From IMG/VR virus record IMGVR_UViG_3300023490_000072, positions 1 to 6,799 of that record: a stretch of DNA of 6,799 nucleotides. One strand, 5' to 3'. Each line of letters starts with the position of its first letter. Within the stretch, counting starts at the first letter, position 1. Of this stretch, positions 2,682 through 6,799 are shown one piece after another. Under the pieces are notes generated by a model. It worked only from the letters and a program-made list of their open reading frames with translations. It had not been told where the DNA came from and ran no database searches. A program made the translations under genes and the position numbers. The stretch comes from a virus.

Positions 2682-2698
2682 TTTAAAATTGTTTGATT

Positions 2699-3148
2699 AT
2701 GATAGCTAAAAATAAAGTAGTTTATGTACCACCTGTTTATGAGGAAGTACAACATGAAGTAACATCTGTTGACGATAATAACAATCCTTTGTGTACGTCT
2801 TTTCACACTGATGTTTCTTTGTTGCAACGTATTGATAATATGCGTGCTGATGCCCAGACCTTGCGAGAGATTAAGGAATCTTTGCAGCCTATGATTGATA
2901 CATCTAATTTCCGTTCCCAGTTTGAAGAAACTTTCGGCTCTTTGACTGATGATGAATTAATCAATTCTTGCCCTTCTCGTTATGTTCAAACGGCTAGTGA
3001 AAAAATGTCTTATCTTAAAGAACTTGCTATTAAAGATAAAGAGGTTCGTGATAAGGCTGCTGCCGCTCTTAAGGAGAAAGAGGAAAAAGAAAAGGCTGAA
3101 AAAGAAAATGCCGATTTCCAGTCTCGTTTAATGGATATTTTTAAGTAG
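2699..3148 (+). CDS. Hypothetical 149-aa protein with a Lys/Glu-rich helical C-terminus; possibly an internal scaffolding (VP3-like) protein, by position only
   Basis: The ORF sits between VP1 and VP2 with 17-nt and 8-nt gaps and shares their codon bias. The track start 2693 is a TTG; the first ATG is 2699 (ttg att ATG ata gct). The C-terminal stretch KDKEVRDKAAAALKEKEEKEKAEKENADFQSRL looks coiled-coil and charged. I recognise no family signature, so the function is inferred from size and position. Confidence 0.7.
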   Translation: MIAKNKVVYVPPVYEEVQHEVTSVDDNNNPLCTSFHTDVSLLQRIDNMRADAQTLREIKESLQPMIDTSNFRSQFEETFGSLTDDELINSCPSRYVQTASEKMSYLKELAIKDKEVRDKAAAALKEKEEKEKAEKENADFQSRLMDIFK

Positions 3149-3156
3149 TTCTGCCT

Positions 3157-4614
3157 ATGTTGTCTAATATTATTTTAAGGAGTGCTGCCGCTTTTGGCGG
3201 TGCTCCTTTTCGCTTAAATAAGTGTACTGCTTTAACTTCTGCTGCTGGTGGTGCTGCTGCTGGTTCTGCTGCTGGTGGTGTTCCTGGCGCTCTTGTTGGT
3301 GGTGCTCTTGGTGTTGCTAGTTCATTACTTGGTGGTCTTTTTGGTAGTCATAATACCAATAAAACCAATGAAATGAATTATAAAATCATGCAAGAACAGA
3401 ATCGTTTTAATGCTGAACAAGCTAAGAAAAATCGTGACTGGCAGGAACTCATGTATCGTATGTTTGGTACCTCTTCTGCTAAGGCTAATGATATGCGTGC
3501 TGCTGGTCTCAATGCTTTGCTTGGTGATGTATCTGCTAGTGGTAACGTTGGTAGTGGTTCTGCTGCTACTGCTGCGGAATCTGCTCAAATGATGCCTACT
3601 GATTATTCGTTTATTGCTGATGCTGCTCATAGTGGTCTTGCTGGATATAATACTACGCGTTCCGTTGATGCTTCCGTTTCTCTCCAAAAATCTCAAGAGA
3701 ATGTGAATAAGTCTATTGAGGGTATTAATGTTGCGCAAAAAGGTCTTATCGAATCTCAAACCGATATGCAAAAAATGACTTATAAATTCGCTCAAGATAC
3801 TTATCAGAATAGACTTTTGCAAGAACAATTTAAGGCTGAGTTGCAGAATTGGCAAGGTTTTGATGCTATGTATGATGCTCGCTTAAAAGCTTTCAGTCTC
3901 TACAATGTCATGCCGCAAGAAGTCGAGAAGAATGTCGCTCAAACTATGTCTTTCTATGCTTCGGCTTTCCGTGATATTGCTGACGGTAAGTATACGCTTA
4001 AACAGACAGAAAATTATGGGCGTTGGCTATCTATTCAGCAAACATTTGCGCATGCTGCTACTGTTCAAAGTAGTGCTGCATTAATGCAAGGTCGTGCCGC
4101 TTTGACCAATGCTAGTGCTAATGCTTCTTATCTGGGTAAATTAGGTAAATATTATGGCTCTTTAACTTCTGGTCAGAATATGACAAATGAAATGTCTCGG
4201 TATTATACCGATTTTATGTTAGGTAAAATGCCGCTTGGTAAAGCCGAATCTATTCTGCGTCAAACACCTTATAGGCATCTGTTGGATTTGAATATACAAC
4301 AGAATGAATGGTCACTTAATAAGTTAATGCAAGAGCCGGATTTGATACGTTCTCTTAGTGGTATGTACAAATCAGAAGCTTCGCTTACTAATAAGCGTGT
4401 TGATAGTTATGATACCGATAAAATCTTTGAGCGTGGTGAATCTATTTCCCGTATGGTTAAGAATATCTCCGATGGTATTAGTAACTTTACACCTAAGCCT
4501 AGATTTAATAGAGGTTCTTCTGCGGGTAGCGAATCCACACCGCCACCGAGTGGTAGATCGTGGCTCGATGCGTATCGTGAAAATCCTAATTATAGCCCTA
4601 CCGGCAATAGATAA
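3157..4614 (+). CDS. VP2: Minor capsid / DNA pilot protein, Microviridae VP2-like (485 aa)
   Basis: The N-terminus is Gly/Ala-rich and hydrophobic (AAGGAAAGSAAGGVPGALVGGALGVASSLLGGLFG). It is followed by NRFNAEQAKKNRDWQELMYRM and ANDMRAAGLNALLG, which resemble conserved VP2 blocks as I recall them. The central part is long, Q/K/E-rich and helical. Its position downstream of VP1 is typical of non-phiX microviruses. Confidence 0.8.
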   Translation: MLSNIILRSAAAFGGAPFRLNKCTALTSAAGGAAAGSAAGGVPGALVGGALGVASSLLGGLFGSHNTNKTNEMNYKIMQEQNRFNAEQAKKNRDWQELMYRMFGTSSAKANDMRAAGLNALLGDVSASGNVGSGSAATAAESAQMMPTDYSFIADAAHSGLAGYNTTRSVDASVSLQKSQENVNKSIEGINVAQKGLIESQTDMQKMTYKFAQDTYQNRLLQEQFKAELQNWQGFDAMYDARLKAFSLYNVMPQEVEKNVAQTMSFYASAFRDIADGKYTLKQTENYGRWLSIQQTFAHAATVQSSAALMQGRAALTNASANASYLGKLGKYYGSLTSGQNMTNEMSRYYTDFMLGKMPLGKAESILRQTPYRHLLDLNIQQNEWSLNKLMQEPDLIRSLSGMYKSEASLTNKRVDSYDTDKIFERGESISRMVKNISDGISNFTPKPRFNRGSSAGSESTPPPSGRSWLDAYRENPNYSPTGNR

Positions 4615-4620
4615 TAAATT

Positions 4621-4665
4621 AGGCGCAAAGGATAATTCCCTTGCGCCTTTTCATTATATTTTTTC
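4621..4665 (+). terminator. Candidate intrinsic terminator after the structural gene block
   Basis: aggcgcaa(a)gg at 4621-4631 pairs with ccttgcgcct at 4639-4648: 8 contiguous bp plus 2 more across a 1-nt bulge, with a short AT-rich loop. It is followed by ttttcattatattttttc and begins 7 nt after the VP2 stop (TAA 4612-4614). Confidence 0.6.
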
Positions 4666-4674
4666 TATTCTTAC

Positions 4675-4839
4675 ATGTGTTTCAATCGTTTCTCTTACTC
4701 CCTTAGTATTCTTTTTGCTTTTATAGCAATTCAGTCCGTTTTTACGTCTTCGACACTACCAAATAATTTAGTTAAATATCTGTTGATTGTACGTTACAAT
4801 AATGCAAACACGTTTTTAAGTAATTCTCATTCAACATAA
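4675..4839 (+). CDS. Possible small ORF (54 aa) with one hydrophobic segment; weakly supported
   Basis: ATG 4675 to TAA 4837-4839 translates as MCFNRFSYSLSILFAFIAIQSVFTSSTLPNNLVKYLLIVRYNNANTFLSNSHST. About half of its codons end in T, as in the real genes. However, the surrounding DNA is T-rich anyway, the ORF lies just downstream of the terminator hairpin, and I see no promoter or family signature. It is below the ORF-track length cutoff. Confidence 0.25.
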   Translation: MCFNRFSYSLSILFAFIAIQSVFTSSTLPNNLVKYLLIVRYNNANTFLSNSHST

Positions 4840-4903
4840 ATACCTTCTGTAAAAATCCATATTTTTCTTATGAAATAATAAAAATTTATATTACACCCTT
4901 AAT

Positions 4904-4970
4904 GTATCTGTTTTATATTTGTGTGCGTGCGCATTTTATACGTACGTACACAATTTAACTAAACAGATAC
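4904..4970. repeat. 67-nt compound inverted repeat (long hairpin or cruciform) in the non-coding region
   Basis: The outer arms gtatctgttt (4904-4913) and aaacagatac (4961-4970) are perfect 10-bp complements. The inner arms 4919-4931 (ttgtgtgcgtgcg) pair with 4941-4953 (cgtacgtacacaa) over 13 positions, two of which are G:T (4925:4947, 4929:4943). The apical loop is the 9-nt cattttata. Both inner arms are alternating purine-pyrimidine runs. Confidence 0.85.
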
Positions 4971-5068
4971 TTTATTTTGGTTTGTCTGCCAGAAAAACCT
5001 TAGCTTTGCGCGGAAAAGTCTATAACTCTCTACTAACTACCTTTTTATGAAAATTTTCCCTGAAAATT

Positions 5069-5160
5069 CCTACTCTCTTGTTTGAGGTAGGCAAAAGCGG
5101 GAATACATATTCCCTAGTTACTGCGCTTTTGTTCCCCCTGTAACTATTTTCTTAAATAGT
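5069..5160. other. Cluster of three adjacent stem-loops in non-coding DNA; candidate ssDNA structural element
   Basis: Hairpin A: cctac 5069-5073 pairs with gtagg 5087-5091. Hairpin B: outer stem caaaagcg 5092-5099 with cgcttttg 5124-5131, enclosing an inner stem gggaat 5099-5104 with attccc 5109-5114; G5099 can belong to only one of the two stems. Hairpin C: actattt 5143-5149 with aaatagt 5154-5160 and a 4-nt loop. Confidence 0.6.
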
Positions 5161-5169
5161 CTTAACAAA

Positions 5170-5202
5170 TTTGGTGTTTTCAAATTTTATTTTTTATCTT
5201 TG
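5170..5202 (+). promoter_or_regulatory. Candidate Bacteroidetes-type promoter (-33 TTTG, 21-nt spacer, -7 TAnnTTTG)
   Basis: TTTG lies at 5170-5173 and TAtcTTTG at 5195-5202, separated by 21 nt. This matches the published Bacteroides sigma-AB promoter consensus TTTG-N19-21-TAnnTTTG. It lies immediately upstream of the ATG at 5207, implying a very short or absent leader. Confidence 0.5.
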
Positions 5203-5206
5203 CACC

Positions 5207-5422
5207 ATGAAAAAGGAAATTATACAAATTATCCTCAAAGTCGCTATCTATGCGCTTGGGTTGATAGCTGCCTATTTTGGAGTCACTTCTTTGACTTCTT
5301 GCAGTACGTCTCACAATGTAGTTGCTAGTGGTCGCACTACTATTGTTACAGTTGATACCACAATTGTTAAACATAACGGTTTTGTCCGTTCTAAAAATTT
5401 TAAGCCTTATGGTGAAAATTAA
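5207..5422 (+). CDS. Small putative lipoprotein (71-aa precursor, 40-aa mature part)
   Basis: MKKEIIQIILKVAIYALGLIAAYFGVTSLTSC has a basic n-region, a hydrophobic h-region and the lipobox L-T-S-C. The Cys is residue 32 (tgc at 5300-5302). The mature part is CSTSHNVVASGRTTIVTVDTTIVKHNGFVRSKNFKPYGEN. The track start 5171 is a TTG that would add 12 residues ahead of an otherwise canonical signal peptide, so I prefer ATG 5207. Codons are T-ending like those of the core genes. Confidence 0.7.
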   Translation: MKKEIIQIILKVAIYALGLIAAYFGVTSLTSCSTSHNVVASGRTTIVTVDTTIVKHNGFVRSKNFKPYGEN

Positions 5423-5588
5423 TTCTCGTTGTTTCATCGTAGAAGTCGACGGCGTTCAGTATGTAGTTAAGTATGGCAAAATTGATGAATTTATTTGTTT
5501 GTTTTTGCCTAGTGTAGTCATCGTTCAGTCAATGATTACTTCATATGTTTCTTGGGAACATGAGTATCAATGGTACAAACGTATTTAG
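5409..5588 (+). CDS. Hypothetical small protein (59 aa)
   Basis: ATG 5409 overlaps the last 14 nt of the lipoprotein ORF, a compact and possibly coupled arrangement. The product is MVKINSRCFIVEVDGVQYVVKYGKIDEFICLFLPSVVIVQSMITSYVSWEHEYQWYKRI. The track start 5322 is a non-ATG start that would lie deep inside the lipoprotein ORF. I recognise no family. Confidence 0.5.
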   Translation: MVKINSRCFIVEVDGVQYVVKYGKIDEFICLFLPSVVIVQSMITSYVSWEHEYQWYKRI

Positions 5589-5809
5589 TTTTTTTGCTTA
5601 TGACGGCTAAAGATTATTTGACTGCTCTCAAAGTCATTAGAGAGATTCAGCGCAAACAGGCATATTGTAGTGGTCAATCTAAACTCTATCTTGCTGAAAC
5701 GTTGAAGGAGATTGAAATGTATTGTCCTTTGGATTTTTCCAGAAGTGGCGGTCGTGTTATCGACAAGGTTATTTTAAGTTGTTATGATGGTAATTTATTT
5801 AATACATAG
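5570..5809 (+). CDS. Hypothetical small protein (79 aa, or 69 aa if it starts at ATG 5600)
   Basis: The ORF ends at TAG 5807-5809, 2 nt before the Rep ATG. ATG 5570 overlaps the preceding ORF by 19 nt. The alternative ATG 5600 (MTAKDYLTALKVIREIQRKQ...) has a T-rich upstream context and leaves an 11-nt gap. I recognise no family. Confidence 0.55.
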   Translation: MVQTYLVFLLMTAKDYLTALKVIREIQRKQAYCSGQSKLYLAETLKEIEMYCPLDFSRSGGRVIDKVILSCYDGNLFNT

Positions 5810-5811
5810 AT

Positions 5812-6799
5812 ATGGCTTTATTTCCGCGATGCAATAATCCTGTTCCTGTCGTTGGTCGACATGGTGTTACTCTTGTTGGTTGTCACTCGTGTATTCAATG
5901 CCGTGTTGCCGCACAGGAGCATCTTTGCAAAATACTCGAGGTAGAAGCTTCTAAACATAAATATGTTGAATTTATTACTAATACGTATGATGATGAACAT
6001 CTTCCGTATATAGATACTTCTTATATGTATCCGTTTGGTTATGCTATTCGTGTTCCTAATCGGGTTATTAAGAAATATAATCGTAGAACTAAAAGTTTTT
6101 ATCTTGTTGAGGATAAAGTTTCTAAGTCTTTTCAACTTACAGATTTTGGAACTATAGATACTGCTGCTATGCTTCGTGACTACTATGCACGTATTGCTAA
6201 ATATTATAGTAGATTTCCTTTTCGGTCACGGGGCATACGTAATAATTCTGTTATCCCCATACTTTGGTATGATGATATACGAAAATATATTGGTCGTTTA
6301 AGAAAATGGTTTTTGAAAGAATATGGTGAAAAAATACGCTACTACATTATTTGCGAATACGGAACACAATCATTCCGTCCGCATTATCATATCCTACTAT
6401 TCCACGACTCGCCTAGAGCGAGAGCGGATTTTAGGGATGTTCGGTCTTTGCCAATGTCCACAAGAGACAATCCCAGAGAAGTTTGTATTAAACTCGATTT
6501 GGCTCAATTATGGCTCTATGGTGATACGACTACAAAGGTTACCGATGGAAATATGCAAGAATACGTTTCTAAGTATCTTACACAACATTCTGATTTCCCT
6601 CGAGTGCTTGACAAGTTTCCACAAAGGAGTTTTCACTCAATCTTATTGGGTTCAAAGAGCAAATCAGAGATTAAAGAACTTTTTACCGTTAGAGACTTCG
6701 AAGCACTTACTACAGATTATGTTGTTAACAAAAAAGGTATCAGACGCCCTATTTCCATGTCAGATGCGTATTACTCTCAACTGTCCGTTAGATTTACAG
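5812..6799 (+). CDS. VP4: N-terminal part of the replication initiation protein (HUH rolling-circle Rep, phiX174 gpA / VP4 family); the ORF is open at the window end and continues at base 1, giving 517 aa in total
   Basis: My manual translation from ATG 5812 finds no stop through 6799. It begins MALFPRCNNPVPV...GCHSCIQCR, a Cys cluster. Motif I-like FITNTY is at 5971-5988. The HUH motif RPHYHILLF has HYH at 6382-6390. The twin-tyrosine motif EYVSKYL has YVSKY at 6562-6576, with the same Y-x-x-K-Y spacing as the phiX174 A-protein active site. The ORF track omits this ORF because it has no stop inside the window. Confidence 0.93.
   Translation, partial: MALFPRCNNPVPVVGRHGVTLVGCHSCIQCRVAAQEHLCKILEVEASKHKYVEFITNTYDDEHLPYIDTSYMYPFGYAIRVPNRVIKKYNRRTKSFYLVEDKVSKSFQLTDFGTIDTAAMLRDYYARIAKYYSRFPFRSRGIRNNSVIPILWYDDIRKYIGRLRKWFLKEYGEKIRYYIICEYGTQSFRPHYHILLFHDSPRARADFRDVRSLPMSTRDNPREVCIKLDLAQLWLYGDTTTKVTDGNMQEYVSKYLTQHSDFPRVLDKFPQRSFHSILLGSKSKSEIKELFTVRDFEALTTDYVVNKKGIRRPISMSDAYYSQLSVRFT
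6745..6799. repeat. Terminal direct repeat, copy 2, identical to 1..55
   Basis: Exact 55/55 identity with bases 1-55. It is redundant sequence from a circular molecule and most likely an assembly overlap. Confidence 0.95.

Follow-up and report, generated by a model that had tools for sequence, protein, structure and literature searches.

The colicin or bacteriocin release lipoproteins (BRPs; PF02402, Lysis_col) are tiny lipoproteins, with a precursor of about 50-70 residues and a mature part of about 30-40. A BRP is known to permeabilise or lyse the Gram-negative cell single-handedly, and its signal peptide is functionally important. These proteins are plasmid-borne in Enterobacteria and act via OmpLA. 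Another kind of small lipoprotein is the outer-membrane spanin Rz1, which is phage-encoded and periplasm-facing and has about 40 mature residues. It is defined by a partner spanin, an accompanying endolysin and holin, a proline-rich mature part and an extra cysteine. T5 Llp and the Cor proteins are also small phage lipoproteins (about 60-77 mature residues); they carry no surface-export signal and are encoded at a promoter-proximal, early position. Genes for the exclusion of rival phages are usually patchy and fast-evolving. In minimal phages that lack an endolysin, lysis is brought about by small transmembrane (TM) proteins, namely E of phiX174, which is overprinted in gene D, and the single-gene lysis (Sgl) proteins of ssRNA phages, with MraY, MurA and MurJ as Sgl-type targets. 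None of these is a lipoprotein, and their N-terminal TM helix is the most constrained part.

For microviruses other than phiX174, the mode of lysis is stated as not known (PMC3394797). In the Alpavirinae, M15_3 peptidases lie in the slot between the pilot-protein and Rep genes (Roux 2012, PMC3394797). This Alpavirinae-like module, present also in phiHBP1, is accessory, horizontally mobile and assumed to be lytic. The accessory gene content of microviruses as a whole has been described as minimal and genetically isolated (PMC9239249). By October 2024 some 6,600 complete microvirus genomes were public (PMC13064476).

Here, a small gene from the same slot is analysed. The window, i.e. the whole stretch of 6,799 nucleotides from IMG/VR record IMGVR_UViG_3300023490_000072, covers a microvirus genome of 6.7 kb (6,744 bp), and the features around the gene are as follows.

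4621-4648, plus strand: 12-bp GC-rich hairpin followed by a T-run, 6 nt past the pilot-protein stop
5170-5202, plus strand: Bacteroidetes-type promoter; -33 TTTG (5170-5173), 21-nt spacer, -7 box TATCTTTG (5195-5202)
5207-5422, plus strand: lipoprotein precursor gene; ATG at 5207, 71 codons plus the stop TAA at 5420-5422
5409-5588, plus strand: ORF59, with a 14-nt overlap with the end of the lipoprotein gene and a hydrophobic stretch at residues 25-47
5600-5809, plus strand: ORF69, listed as a 79-residue ORF (5570-5809), with its start probably at ATG 5600
5812-6799, plus strand: start of the Rep/VP4 gene, which runs on across the circular junction to position 621

Like the BRPs, the product is tiny and has a constrained signal peptide, as measured here. 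It is, however, without sequence relationship to them (no Pfam match at E <= 0.1), is encoded by a phage of another host phylum instead of a plasmid, and its lytic role is putative. The sequence-only reading of this locus had suggested Rz1, and the receptor-plugging Llp and Cor proteins, as possible models; the first lacks its defining features here, and the second has no sequence support but stays a serious rival as regards function. With Rz1 the product shares its phage origin, the predicted periplasmic orientation and the mature length, and two homologues lie right after putative lysin genes. But no Rz-like partner overlaps or adjoins the gene: the upstream DNA is non-coding, and ORF59 has its hydrophobic stretch in mid-protein, without an N-terminal transmembrane domain (TMD) plus coiled coil. 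The window genome has no endolysin or holin, no PHROG spanin match was found, and the mature part is not proline-rich (one proline, P67) and has no cysteine other than the predicted lipidated Cys32, hence none for an intermolecular disulfide. Llp and Cor resemble it in size class, lack of a surface-export signal and early position, but no homology to them was detected (Pfam, PHROG, PADLOC), the gene does not adjoin that of the receptor-binding protein, its mature part has 40 residues only, and it is universal in its clade, not patchy. With E and the Sgl proteins it has in common a minimal phage without an endolysin and an N-terminal helix that is the most constrained part; in contrast to E, the gene has its own frame and promoter, and it is homologous to neither. 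The M15_3 module occupies the same slot, but it is an enzyme, not a lipopeptide, and occurs in genomes that lack the lipoprotein gene.

A conserved gene in two kinds of phage

The 71-codon ORF (216 bp) is a real gene, strongly conserved and under purifying selection. It is intact in 39/40 related loci, and among 39 distinct relatives its frame is the sole open one of six. In this frame dN/dS is about 0.22-0.26 (pN/pS 0.26) and variability falls from the third codon position to the first and then the second, whereas the other five frames give 0.43 to 2.5 and contain stops in 32-39 of the 39 sequences. Homologous proteins fall into 95 clusters at 50% identity and, at 90% identity, into 915, one of which has 1,670 member sequences. 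The sequence-only reading had placed the ORF, the lipobox LTSC (residues 29-32) and the 40-residue mature part correctly; its reservations, that the ORF might be unconserved or interrupted in relatives, or free of purifying selection, are removed by these data. A chance ORF or gene-calling artefact in a non-coding region, to which the shortness of the gene, the lack of a database annotation and its being unannotated in most GenBank records of relatives might have pointed, is refuted by the open frame in 39/39, the pN/pS of 0.26 and the 95 clusters, and its probability is practically nil.

Some other gene models were rejected. An antisense ORF (5180-5437) has stops in 32/39 relatives and a pN/pS of 1.1. 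The upstream extensions found in database proteins of 83, 87 and 124 residues are gene-calling artefacts: they are poorly conserved, suffer indels and contain the conserved promoter, and two relatives begin with GTG at the place of the ATG codon.

No significant family was found for the lipoprotein in Pfam (E <= 0.1), PHROGs, NCBIfam, PADLOC or PDB sequence profiles, the PHROG matches being marginal and unrelated (phrog_301, E = 0.02; phrog_35642, E = 0.039). By sequence comparison, the gene founds an undescribed family, common to gut microviruses and tiny Bacteroidota podoviruses. Its novelty for microviruses, as proposed by the sequence-only reading, agrees with a literature search in which no paper linking microviruses with a lipoprotein or lipobox was found.

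In all the microviral relatives the gene lies upstream of Rep, and directly so in the more distant ones, including Bacteroidales prophages. Thus, the synteny that had been put forward as worth looking for holds across very divergent microviruses. Every clade contig that spans the pilot-to-Rep interval carries the gene, and the six VP1-positive contigs without it each end exactly at this slot. The 6.7-kb genome has three non-core ORFs only, and the lipoprotein gene alone of them is conserved beyond the clade; ORF59 and ORF69, the latter with its stop 2 nt upstream of the Rep ATG, are conserved within the window clade only. At one locus (L003) the lipoprotein is 97% identical while VP1 is 71% identical.

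The promoter ends 4 nt upstream of the ATG, and the lipoprotein mRNA would, therefore, be leaderless or nearly so. The pattern TTTG-N17-23-TAnnTTTG was searched for, and the match here is TTTG-N21-TAnnTTTG. Of the unique upstream sequences, 37 have the -7 box at the 4-nt offset and one more has it at 5 nt, which makes up essentially all window-clade upstreams; in this clade both boxes are conserved and the spacer is variable. To call this the only recognisable promoter, as had been done, was a slight overstatement since a second match lies at 4976-5008 (two matches arise in 17/200 shuffles); it is conservation that picks out 5170-5202. The hairpin at 4621-4648 is probably the terminator closing a single transcription unit that is opened by the lipoprotein gene.

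A surprise, missed by the sequence-only reading, came from phi29-like podoviruses of ~11 kb: there, too, a homologue comes first in gene order and follows the Bacteroidetes-type promoter motif. The same TATCTTTG box is found there 26-27 nt upstream of the gene. In ~25 podovirus contigs the genome end starts with the homologue, and the replication genes come after it. The shared promoter box suggests that microviruses and podoviruses probably infect the same host phylum. A profile search of genome contigs returned only two podovirus-sized MAG contigs, with little information on hosts. The podoviruses also encode a 68-residue protein in which an N-terminal TMD precedes a helical tail and which could be a holin or an inner-membrane partner.

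As regards lysins, no window ORF matched a hydrolase in Pfam, PHROGs or NCBIfam, and searches with an M15 HMM and for DUF5675 were also negative. In related microviruses (L070 and L074) the pilot-to-Rep slot holds M15_3 peptidases, and the B. fragilis isolate phiHBP1, without the lipoprotein gene, likewise encodes an M15 peptidase. Counted over the raw loci at hand with kinship ignored, lipoprotein-positive microvirus loci, most of them from one clade, carry an M15 peptidase in 0/65 and DUF5675 in 1/65 cases, and 4/12 complete lipoprotein-negative genomes carry an M15 peptidase. In two phages a putative lysin gene runs into the start of the homologue, namely a DUF5675 gene in the microvirus L075 and an M15_3/phrog_894 endolysin gene in the podovirus L044. 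The DUF5675 protein is described as a C82-like candidate lysin (bioRxiv 10.64898/2026.04.11.717860). Such adjacency is seen in only 2 of about 14 distinct gene neighbourhoods, a count that speaks against lysis, and a Pfam scan of 35 neighbour-gene representatives gave no lysin case besides these two.

Predicted signal peptide, lipobox and mature lipopeptide

The precursor of 71 residues (MKKEIIQIILKVAIYALGLIAAYFGVTSLTSC / STSHN...) starts with a basic N-terminus and a hydrophobic helix; these are followed by the lipobox LTSC and, from Cys32 on, a mature part of 40 residues. Its predicted parts are as follows.

5207-5299, plus strand: signal peptide or N-terminal TM helix (residues 1-31), with an MKKE n-region, K11 and the h-region VAIYALGLIAAYFGV
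5291-5302, plus strand: lipobox L29-T30-S31-C32, with Cys32 the predicted lipidated first residue of the mature protein
5300-5419, plus strand: predicted mature lipopeptide of 40 residues (C-STSHNVVASGRTTIVTVDTTIVKHNGFVRSKNFKPYGEN)
5330-5380, plus strand: family core motif G-[KR]-x-x-I-[IV]-T-x-D-T-T-x-[IV]-x-H-x-G (residues 42-58), a predicted beta-hairpin

By every sequence criterion applied, the gene product is a lipoprotein precursor. The rule used was of the PROSITE-PS51257 type, {DERK}6-[LIVMFWSTAG]2-[LIVMFYSTAGCQ]-[AGS]-C, with the Cys at 15-35 and K/R within the first seven residues. The ORF matches it with K2, K3, LTSC and Cys32, and is the only one to do so among the 72 Met-started candidates of at least 40 residues in the six frames of the window. 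In the family, 52/70 representatives match, and most failures have over-long called N-termini. The lipobox Cys is invariant in 62 sequences with pairwise identities under 50%; S/G/A occupies position -1 in 62/69 (90%), and L/F/V/M occupies position -3 in 59/69. In some distant members the signal peptide is of the short classical kind and the Cys is residue 15-21, and in the podovirus homologues it is found at 36-42. Pattern scans were done with the narrower family alignments, the broad one being unsuitable.

Hydropathy marks residues 3-30 as the hydrophobic segment, and AlphaFold2 models residues 3-31 as a helix (pLDDT 89-96). The signal peptide has a dN/dS of 0.15 against 0.32 for the mature part, and in 37 distant microviral members the mean top-residue frequency is 0.54 against 0.46. 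It is, thus, unusually constrained, and probably adds to the activity beyond targeting; that it is as conserved as the mature part had been overlooked in the sequence-only reading.

The N-terminus also resembles the smalltalk peptides (NCBIfam NF033879, a 29-residue model), with lipoprotein residues 2-29 aligning with model positions 1-28. The window N-terminus scores 12.7 bits (E = 0.087), below the cut-off of 24.7 bits, and several members give sub-threshold end-to-end matches, of which the best (P0141) reaches 19.3 bits (E = 7e-4). Genuine smalltalk members occupy the same pilot-to-Rep slot in L068 (42 bits) and in L070 (38 bits, beside the M15 peptidase). Those peptides (29-32 residues), however, stop where the lipobox and hairpin domain start here. 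Another candidate, YgdI/YgdR (NCBIfam NF033216), was rejected: the window protein and the family member P0196 reach 17.3 bits (E = 0.003) against a cut-off of 42 bits. This match is probably driven by the signal peptide and lipobox since a family-profile search of all PDB chain sequences returned nothing at E below 1, and a YgdR structure lacking its signal peptide is, we assume, in the PDB.

In the mature part, G42 and D50 of the core motif are invariant and T51 and H56 nearly so, and the hairpin motif is the sole part common to all the family lineages. AlphaFold2 places strands at 38-47 and 51-60. The beta-rich fold guessed from the letters agrees with this hairpin, but only at low confidence (pLDDT about 60). 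Foldseek searches with the model (PDB, BFVD) gave no family; for a model made of one helix and a hairpin of low confidence, such results carry no meaning.

The surface-export signal of Bacteroidetes is acidic and lies just after the Cys (K-(D/E)2, SDDDD; PMC5080379). It is absent here, as had been noted, the residues +2 to +6 being STSHN; among the representatives there are no acidic residues at these positions in 55/70, one in the other 15 and never two, and position +5 is mostly R/H/K. Since this signal is missing, a periplasm-facing location of the mature lipopeptide can fairly be inferred.

A proposed role in lysis and its alternatives

The lipoprotein gene is the best candidate for an envelope function, either lysis or else the exclusion of rival phages. 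We tentatively favour lysis, with the gene product as the membrane-active component of the lysis module and, in this phage, as its endolysin-independent effector. This preference has several reasons. Relatives without the lipoprotein gene hold M15 peptidases in the same slot, and the two are complementary in the loci at hand. The homologue overlaps a putative lysin gene in two unrelated phages. By elimination, there is no hydrolase, and no other lysis candidate is as widely distributed, although ORF59, with its own hydrophobic segment, could be an alternative lysis protein. Finally, constraint is stronger on the signal peptide than on the mature part, and the signal peptide resembles the smalltalk TM peptides of the same slot. 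Profile searches of Pfam, PHROGs, NCBIfam and the PDB gave no homology to any characterised lysis protein.

By sequence rules, the following course can be proposed. The lipoprotein gene would be read as the first cistron of the single operon of the phage from a sigma-type promoter of its Bacteroidota host. The 31-residue N-terminal helix would insert the precursor into the inner membrane, whereupon Cys32 would be lipidated and the signal peptide cleaved by signal peptidase II. The 40-residue lipopeptide, with a predicted beta-hairpin on G-R-x-x-I-V-T-x-D-T-T-x-V-x-H-x-G, would then reside on the periplasmic side of the envelope. Its accumulation may harm envelope integrity or block the biogenesis of the cell wall or outer membrane, by analogy with the colicin lysis lipoproteins and the small TM single-gene lysis proteins of phiX174 and the ssRNA phages.

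The most serious rival, though a less likely one, is a superinfection-exclusion or receptor-masking lipoprotein of the Llp or Cor type. Made early and abundantly, it would sit in the periplasmic leaflet of the outer membrane and inactivate a receptor or entry factor, so that the infected cell or lysogen, its debris and its vesicles are shielded from further adsorption. In microviruses and podoviruses alike, it is this gene that directly follows a host-type promoter, and its sharing by two unrelated phage groups with the same promoter box fits a host-directed accessory function. Its position at the extreme genome end of the podoviruses suggests early, strong expression, which suits exclusion or take-over better than lethal lysis. 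The gene also occurs in integrated Bacteroidales prophages, and the missing surface-export signal would make the product a periplasm-facing lipoprotein like Llp. However, neither sequence nor profile comparison relates it to Llp, Cor or an exclusion family of PADLOC or PHROG, and it is not linked to the receptor-binding capsid gene. It is universal and, as at the locus compared above, more conserved than the capsid protein, and a luxury function is less expected in genomes of 6.7 and 10.8 kb. Moreover, a 2021 study by Kirchberger reportedly places the superinfection exclusion of temperate microviruses in the hypervariable region of the pilot protein.

It is distinctly less probable that the active form is the N-terminal TM peptide, acting in the manner of smalltalk, or else a type II membrane protein that stays uncleaved, with the lipobox as a juxtamembrane motif, or that the protein has some other envelope role, such as a beta-strand mimic docking TonB or BAM/Lpt. 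The long, strongly conserved N-terminal helix, the sub-threshold smalltalk matches and the genuine smalltalk peptides of the same slot are consistent with this. The D-T-T-x-[IV] strand recalls what we take to be TonB-box strands, and mimicry of a TonB box is speculation. Against it stand the invariant Cys, which in 62/69 comes after S/G/A and in every case closes the hydrophobic segment, the members with classical signal peptides of 15-21 residues, and the fact that the mature hairpin motif is the only part that all lineages share.

A role in the outer-membrane step of a multi-component lysis, as a spanin- or disruptin-like accessory that breaks or fuses the outer membrane after peptidoglycan degradation, is very unlikely. 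The product is a small, periplasm-facing lipoprotein like Rz1, its start overlaps the lysin gene end in L044 and L075, and the 68-residue podovirus protein could serve as its holin or inner-membrane partner. But no recognisable lysin is found in the window genome or in 64/65 lipoprotein-positive microvirus loci, the distribution is complementary to that of the peptidases rather than joint, and the missing partner and cysteine and the single proline described above also argue against it.

Significance for microviruses and their hosts

Going further than the lysis role as such, the protein could be the first single-gene lysis effector of the lipoprotein type: a 40-residue lipidated hairpin, possibly together with the released TM signal peptide, would kill Bacteroidota without a hydrolase and would have been swapped horizontally between ssDNA microviruses and dsDNA phi29-like podoviruses. 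This fuller proposal is rather doubtful.

Microviruses rank among the most abundant phages of the mammalian gut, and the lipoprotein gene is very common in them yet has hardly ever been annotated. Very few microviral genes are present in tailed phages as well, and this is one of them; what is shared is a module in which a small lipoprotein gene, as the first cistron, comes after a host promoter. If the horizontal exchange is true, it would be a cross-realm gene transfer into a virus group that is thought to be almost closed to exchange. As an exclusion factor, the lipoprotein would give microviruses a second immunity mechanism, this one lipoprotein-based, and would offer a way to their receptor. 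If it is instead a lysis effector, it would offer a new target or mechanism for killing Bacteroidota, as well as a compact lysis cassette for engineering them.

Layout of the circular genome

The first 55 bases of the window recur exactly at its end (1-55 = 6745-6799). The window is thus a circular genome of 6,744 bp, in which Rep, beginning at 5812, resumes at position 56. All the genes are found on the + strand, and the features are as follows:

627-2681, + strand: major capsid protein VP1 (Pfam Phage_F, phrog_514)
2693-3148, + strand: scaffold-like ORF, 151 aa
3157-4614, + strand: pilot protein
4621-4648: hairpin with T-run; 12-bp GC-rich stem (AGGCGCAAAGG...CCTTGCGCCT), 6 nt past the pilot-protein stop
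5170-5202: promoter, TTTG-N21-TATCTTTG, fitting the -33/-7 consensus of Bacteroides
5207-5422, + strand: lipoprotein gene, 71 codons
5409-5588, + strand: ORF59; 14-nt overlap with the lipoprotein gene; hydrophobic stretch at residues 25-47
5600-5809, + strand: ORF69; 11-nt gap after ORF59; ends 2 nt before the Rep ATG
5812 through the circular junction to 621, + strand: Rep (VP4), 517 aa

The lipoprotein gene, ORF59 and ORF69 are three small ORFs packed tightly upstream of Rep. Conservation of the latter two is limited to the clade of the window's close relatives, and neither matches any known family. The hairpin looks like a terminator; alternatively, it could be a single-strand origin hairpin. 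From 4615 to 5206, about 590 nt contain no convincing or conserved ORF, an unusual length for a microvirus; at 4976-5008, this stretch has another match to the TTTG-N-TAnnTTTG pattern.

Both promoter boxes are conserved, with a variable spacer between them. In 37 unique upstream sequences, 4 nt separate the end of the -7 box from the start codon, and in one more the distance is 5 nt, these being essentially all the upstream sequences of the clade; a leaderless or near-leaderless first cistron is therefore predicted. Taken with the hairpin that follows the pilot gene, this promoter gives the genome the appearance of a single transcription unit opened by the lipoprotein gene.

The lipoprotein and its family

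The ORF described in the sequence-only reading, with its lipobox LTSC (residues 29-32) and 40-residue mature part, was found exactly so in the window. The lipoprotein call was also right. Of the 72 ORFs of 40 aa or more that start with Met, over all six frames of the window, this one alone matches the PROSITE-type lipoprotein rule. It is intact in 39 of 40 related loci, two relatives having GTG as the start at the same codon. Variability is highest at the third codon position, followed by the first and then the second. Purifying selection is evident from a dN/dS of 0.22 and a pN/pS of 0.26, against 0.43 to 2.5 in the other frames; across 39 distinct sequences, only the lipoprotein frame is open in all. 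The finding is real and merits experimental follow-up.

Database versions of 83, 87 and 124 aa were rejected as start mis-calls, their extensions reading through the promoter. A single copy on a partial contig (L040, 3982-4176; protein P0123) is truncated or frame-shifted, and the database protein P0164 has the N-terminus of ORF59 fused to the C-terminus of the lipoprotein; recombination or faulty assembly may explain either one. Another database protein, P0156 (254 aa), carries five tandem copies of a segment like the post-Cys residues (ATSHNVSA[TR]GR...) and may be an artefact.

A search with the protein itself gave 915 clusters at 90% identity, most of them from contigs of 6.4-7.2 kb, with 1,670 sequences in one cluster. 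A profile made from the clade only, searched against 1.8 billion representative proteins, yielded 95 clusters (50% identity), with E <= 1e-10 for 32. In an alignment of 62 of these, Cys32, Gly42 and Asp50 are invariant, and Thr51 and His56 nearly so. Relative to the Cys, S/G/A occupies position -1 in 62 of the 69 representatives, and L/F/V/M position -3 in 59; short signal peptides of the textbook kind, such as MKQLILFLALIAVGLASC and MKKIIVLLMVVLTVSAC, occur in several distant members. Among 70 representatives, 55 are free of acidic residues at +2 to +6 and none has two; thus, the Bacteroidetes surface-export signal, K-(D/E)2 or SDDDD (PMC5080379), is absent from the family, and the periplasm-facing location proposed earlier would stand. 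AlphaFold2, run on the family alignment, predicted a confident helix at 3-31 and a beta-hairpin at 38-47/51-60 whose pLDDT was only about 60. Sequence and fold searches did not link the lipoprotein to anything known.

Distribution in microviruses and podoviruses

All VP1-related contigs that span the pilot-to-Rep interval have the gene, including three (L060-L062) with a VP1 identity of only 48-53%. The six VP1-related contigs without it all break off exactly inside this interval. The lipoprotein is conserved above the capsid protein, for example at 97% identity against 71% for VP1 in the related locus L003. Synteny also holds in far more distantly related microviruses, sampled from pig, chicken, lemur and human, where the gene is always just upstream of Rep. 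It is absent from ten sampled GenBank microviruses at about 30% VP1 identity and from phiHBP1, a cultivated B. fragilis microvirus. In GenBank, the closest records are unclassified Microviridae of gut origin, one from dog (MG945894) and one from human (PV067919), at 84-86% DNA identity, both with the lipoprotein ORF unannotated; among the GenBank microvirus records encoding a homologue, 23 of 28 have no feature annotated over the gene. The gene also occurs in prophages, on contigs 23-79 kb long, that are integrated beside SusC/SusD-type genes, an indication of Bacteroidota hosts.

Unexpectedly, homologues are also present in small podoviruses (9.4-11.7 kb), whose phi29-like nature was recognised by Phi29_MCP, connector, Gp16 ATPase and protein-primed PolB. 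These homologues matched the clade-only profile significantly, their E-values on the whole library ranging from 6e-6 to 3e-4. About 25 such contigs have the homologue as their opening gene, 70-640 nt in from the contig end; next come three ORFs (70, 118 and 217 aa) and, after these, the polymerase. The same TATCTTTG box (Bacteroidetes-type -7) lies 26-27 nt upstream of the podovirus homologues. Microvirus gene exchange outside their own families was described in a published survey as rare to nonexistent (PMC9239249), and the lipoprotein gene is an exception to it.

The gut-metagenome podoviruses with the homologue as first gene (L086-L106, L116 at 81-374 and L117 at 108-347) are of about 10.7-11.7 kb, with about 13 genes, almost all on the same strand. 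Pfam detected no recognisable endolysin in L116 or L117. Both encode, between the packaging ATPase and connector genes (5162-5368 and 5099-5305, respectively), a protein of 68 aa in which an N-terminal TMD is combined with a charged helical tail; it is a possible holin or else a possible spanin-like partner in the inner membrane.

Possible functions

Judging from gene neighbourhoods and conservation, the lipoprotein is tentatively proposed to be a lysis effector. M15_3 peptidases occupy the same pilot-to-Rep slot in the related microviruses L070 and L074, which favours such a role; peptidase insertions between VP2 and VP4 of Alpavirinae have been proposed as endolysins (Roux et al., PMC3394797). 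The distribution is likewise suggestive, M15 peptidases being found in none of 65 lipoprotein-positive microvirus loci (DUF5675 in one) against 4 of 12 complete lipoprotein-negative genomes, in counts that ignore phylogeny. Further support comes from overlaps with lysin-type genes: in podovirus L044, the homologue begins before a putative M15_3 endolysin gene has ended, and in microvirus L075 (Dulem virus 260, lemur gut), its start overlaps the stop of a DUF5675 gene (3649-4041, E = 8e-30). DUF5675 has lately been proposed as a C82-like phage lysin (bioRxiv 10.64898/2026.04.11.717860); no mention of it in Microviridae was found in the literature searched. A lysis role is also favoured because no hydrolase was found in the window genome, and the lipoprotein is the only one of its three non-core ORFs conserved beyond the clade.

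Constraint is stronger on the signal peptide than on the mature part (dN/dS 0.15 vs 0.32; conservation in distant microviral members 0.54 vs 0.46), and the signal peptide bears a sub-threshold resemblance to the ‘smalltalk’ transmembrane peptides (NF033879), which again argues for lysis. A functional signal peptide, as suggested here, would recall the colicin lysis lipoproteins, whose signal peptide is functional, and the TM-helix lysis proteins E and Sgl. Two microviruses from rodent faeces, L068 (4209-4304) and L070 (3968-4063), encode genuine smalltalk peptides by the NCBIfam model (31-32 aa, 38-42 bits) in the same slot, just upstream of Rep; the L070 peptide directly precedes the M15_3 peptidase gene. 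On this evidence, smalltalk would be, in part at least, a family of microviral membrane peptides belonging to the lysis slot.

Three points speak against the lysis role: the podovirus first-gene position, suggestive of early, high expression; lysin adjacency in only 2 of about 14 neighbourhood types; and ORF59 as an alternative membrane candidate. An early position, prophage carriage and periplasmic orientation would instead fit superinfection exclusion of the Llp/Cor kind, and this earlier proposal is kept as a serious rival, less likely than lysis. It finds no homology support, clashes with the universal, slow-evolving pattern of the gene and would duplicate the exclusion that temperate microviruses reportedly carry out through the pilot protein. 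Another envelope role, or an activity centred on the TM peptide, is improbable, and its form as an uncleaved membrane protein or active TM peptide is disfavoured by the invariant lipobox. An outer-membrane accessory is less probable still, and the Rz1 spanin role once suggested is largely rejected, three defining features of the classical Rz1-type spanin being absent.

Small lipoproteins are a known kind of phage protein; by sequence, this family is unrelated to all of them and, within the literature that could be searched, has no precedent in Microviridae. It is an abundant, almost wholly unannotated lipoprotein family, common to different viral realms.
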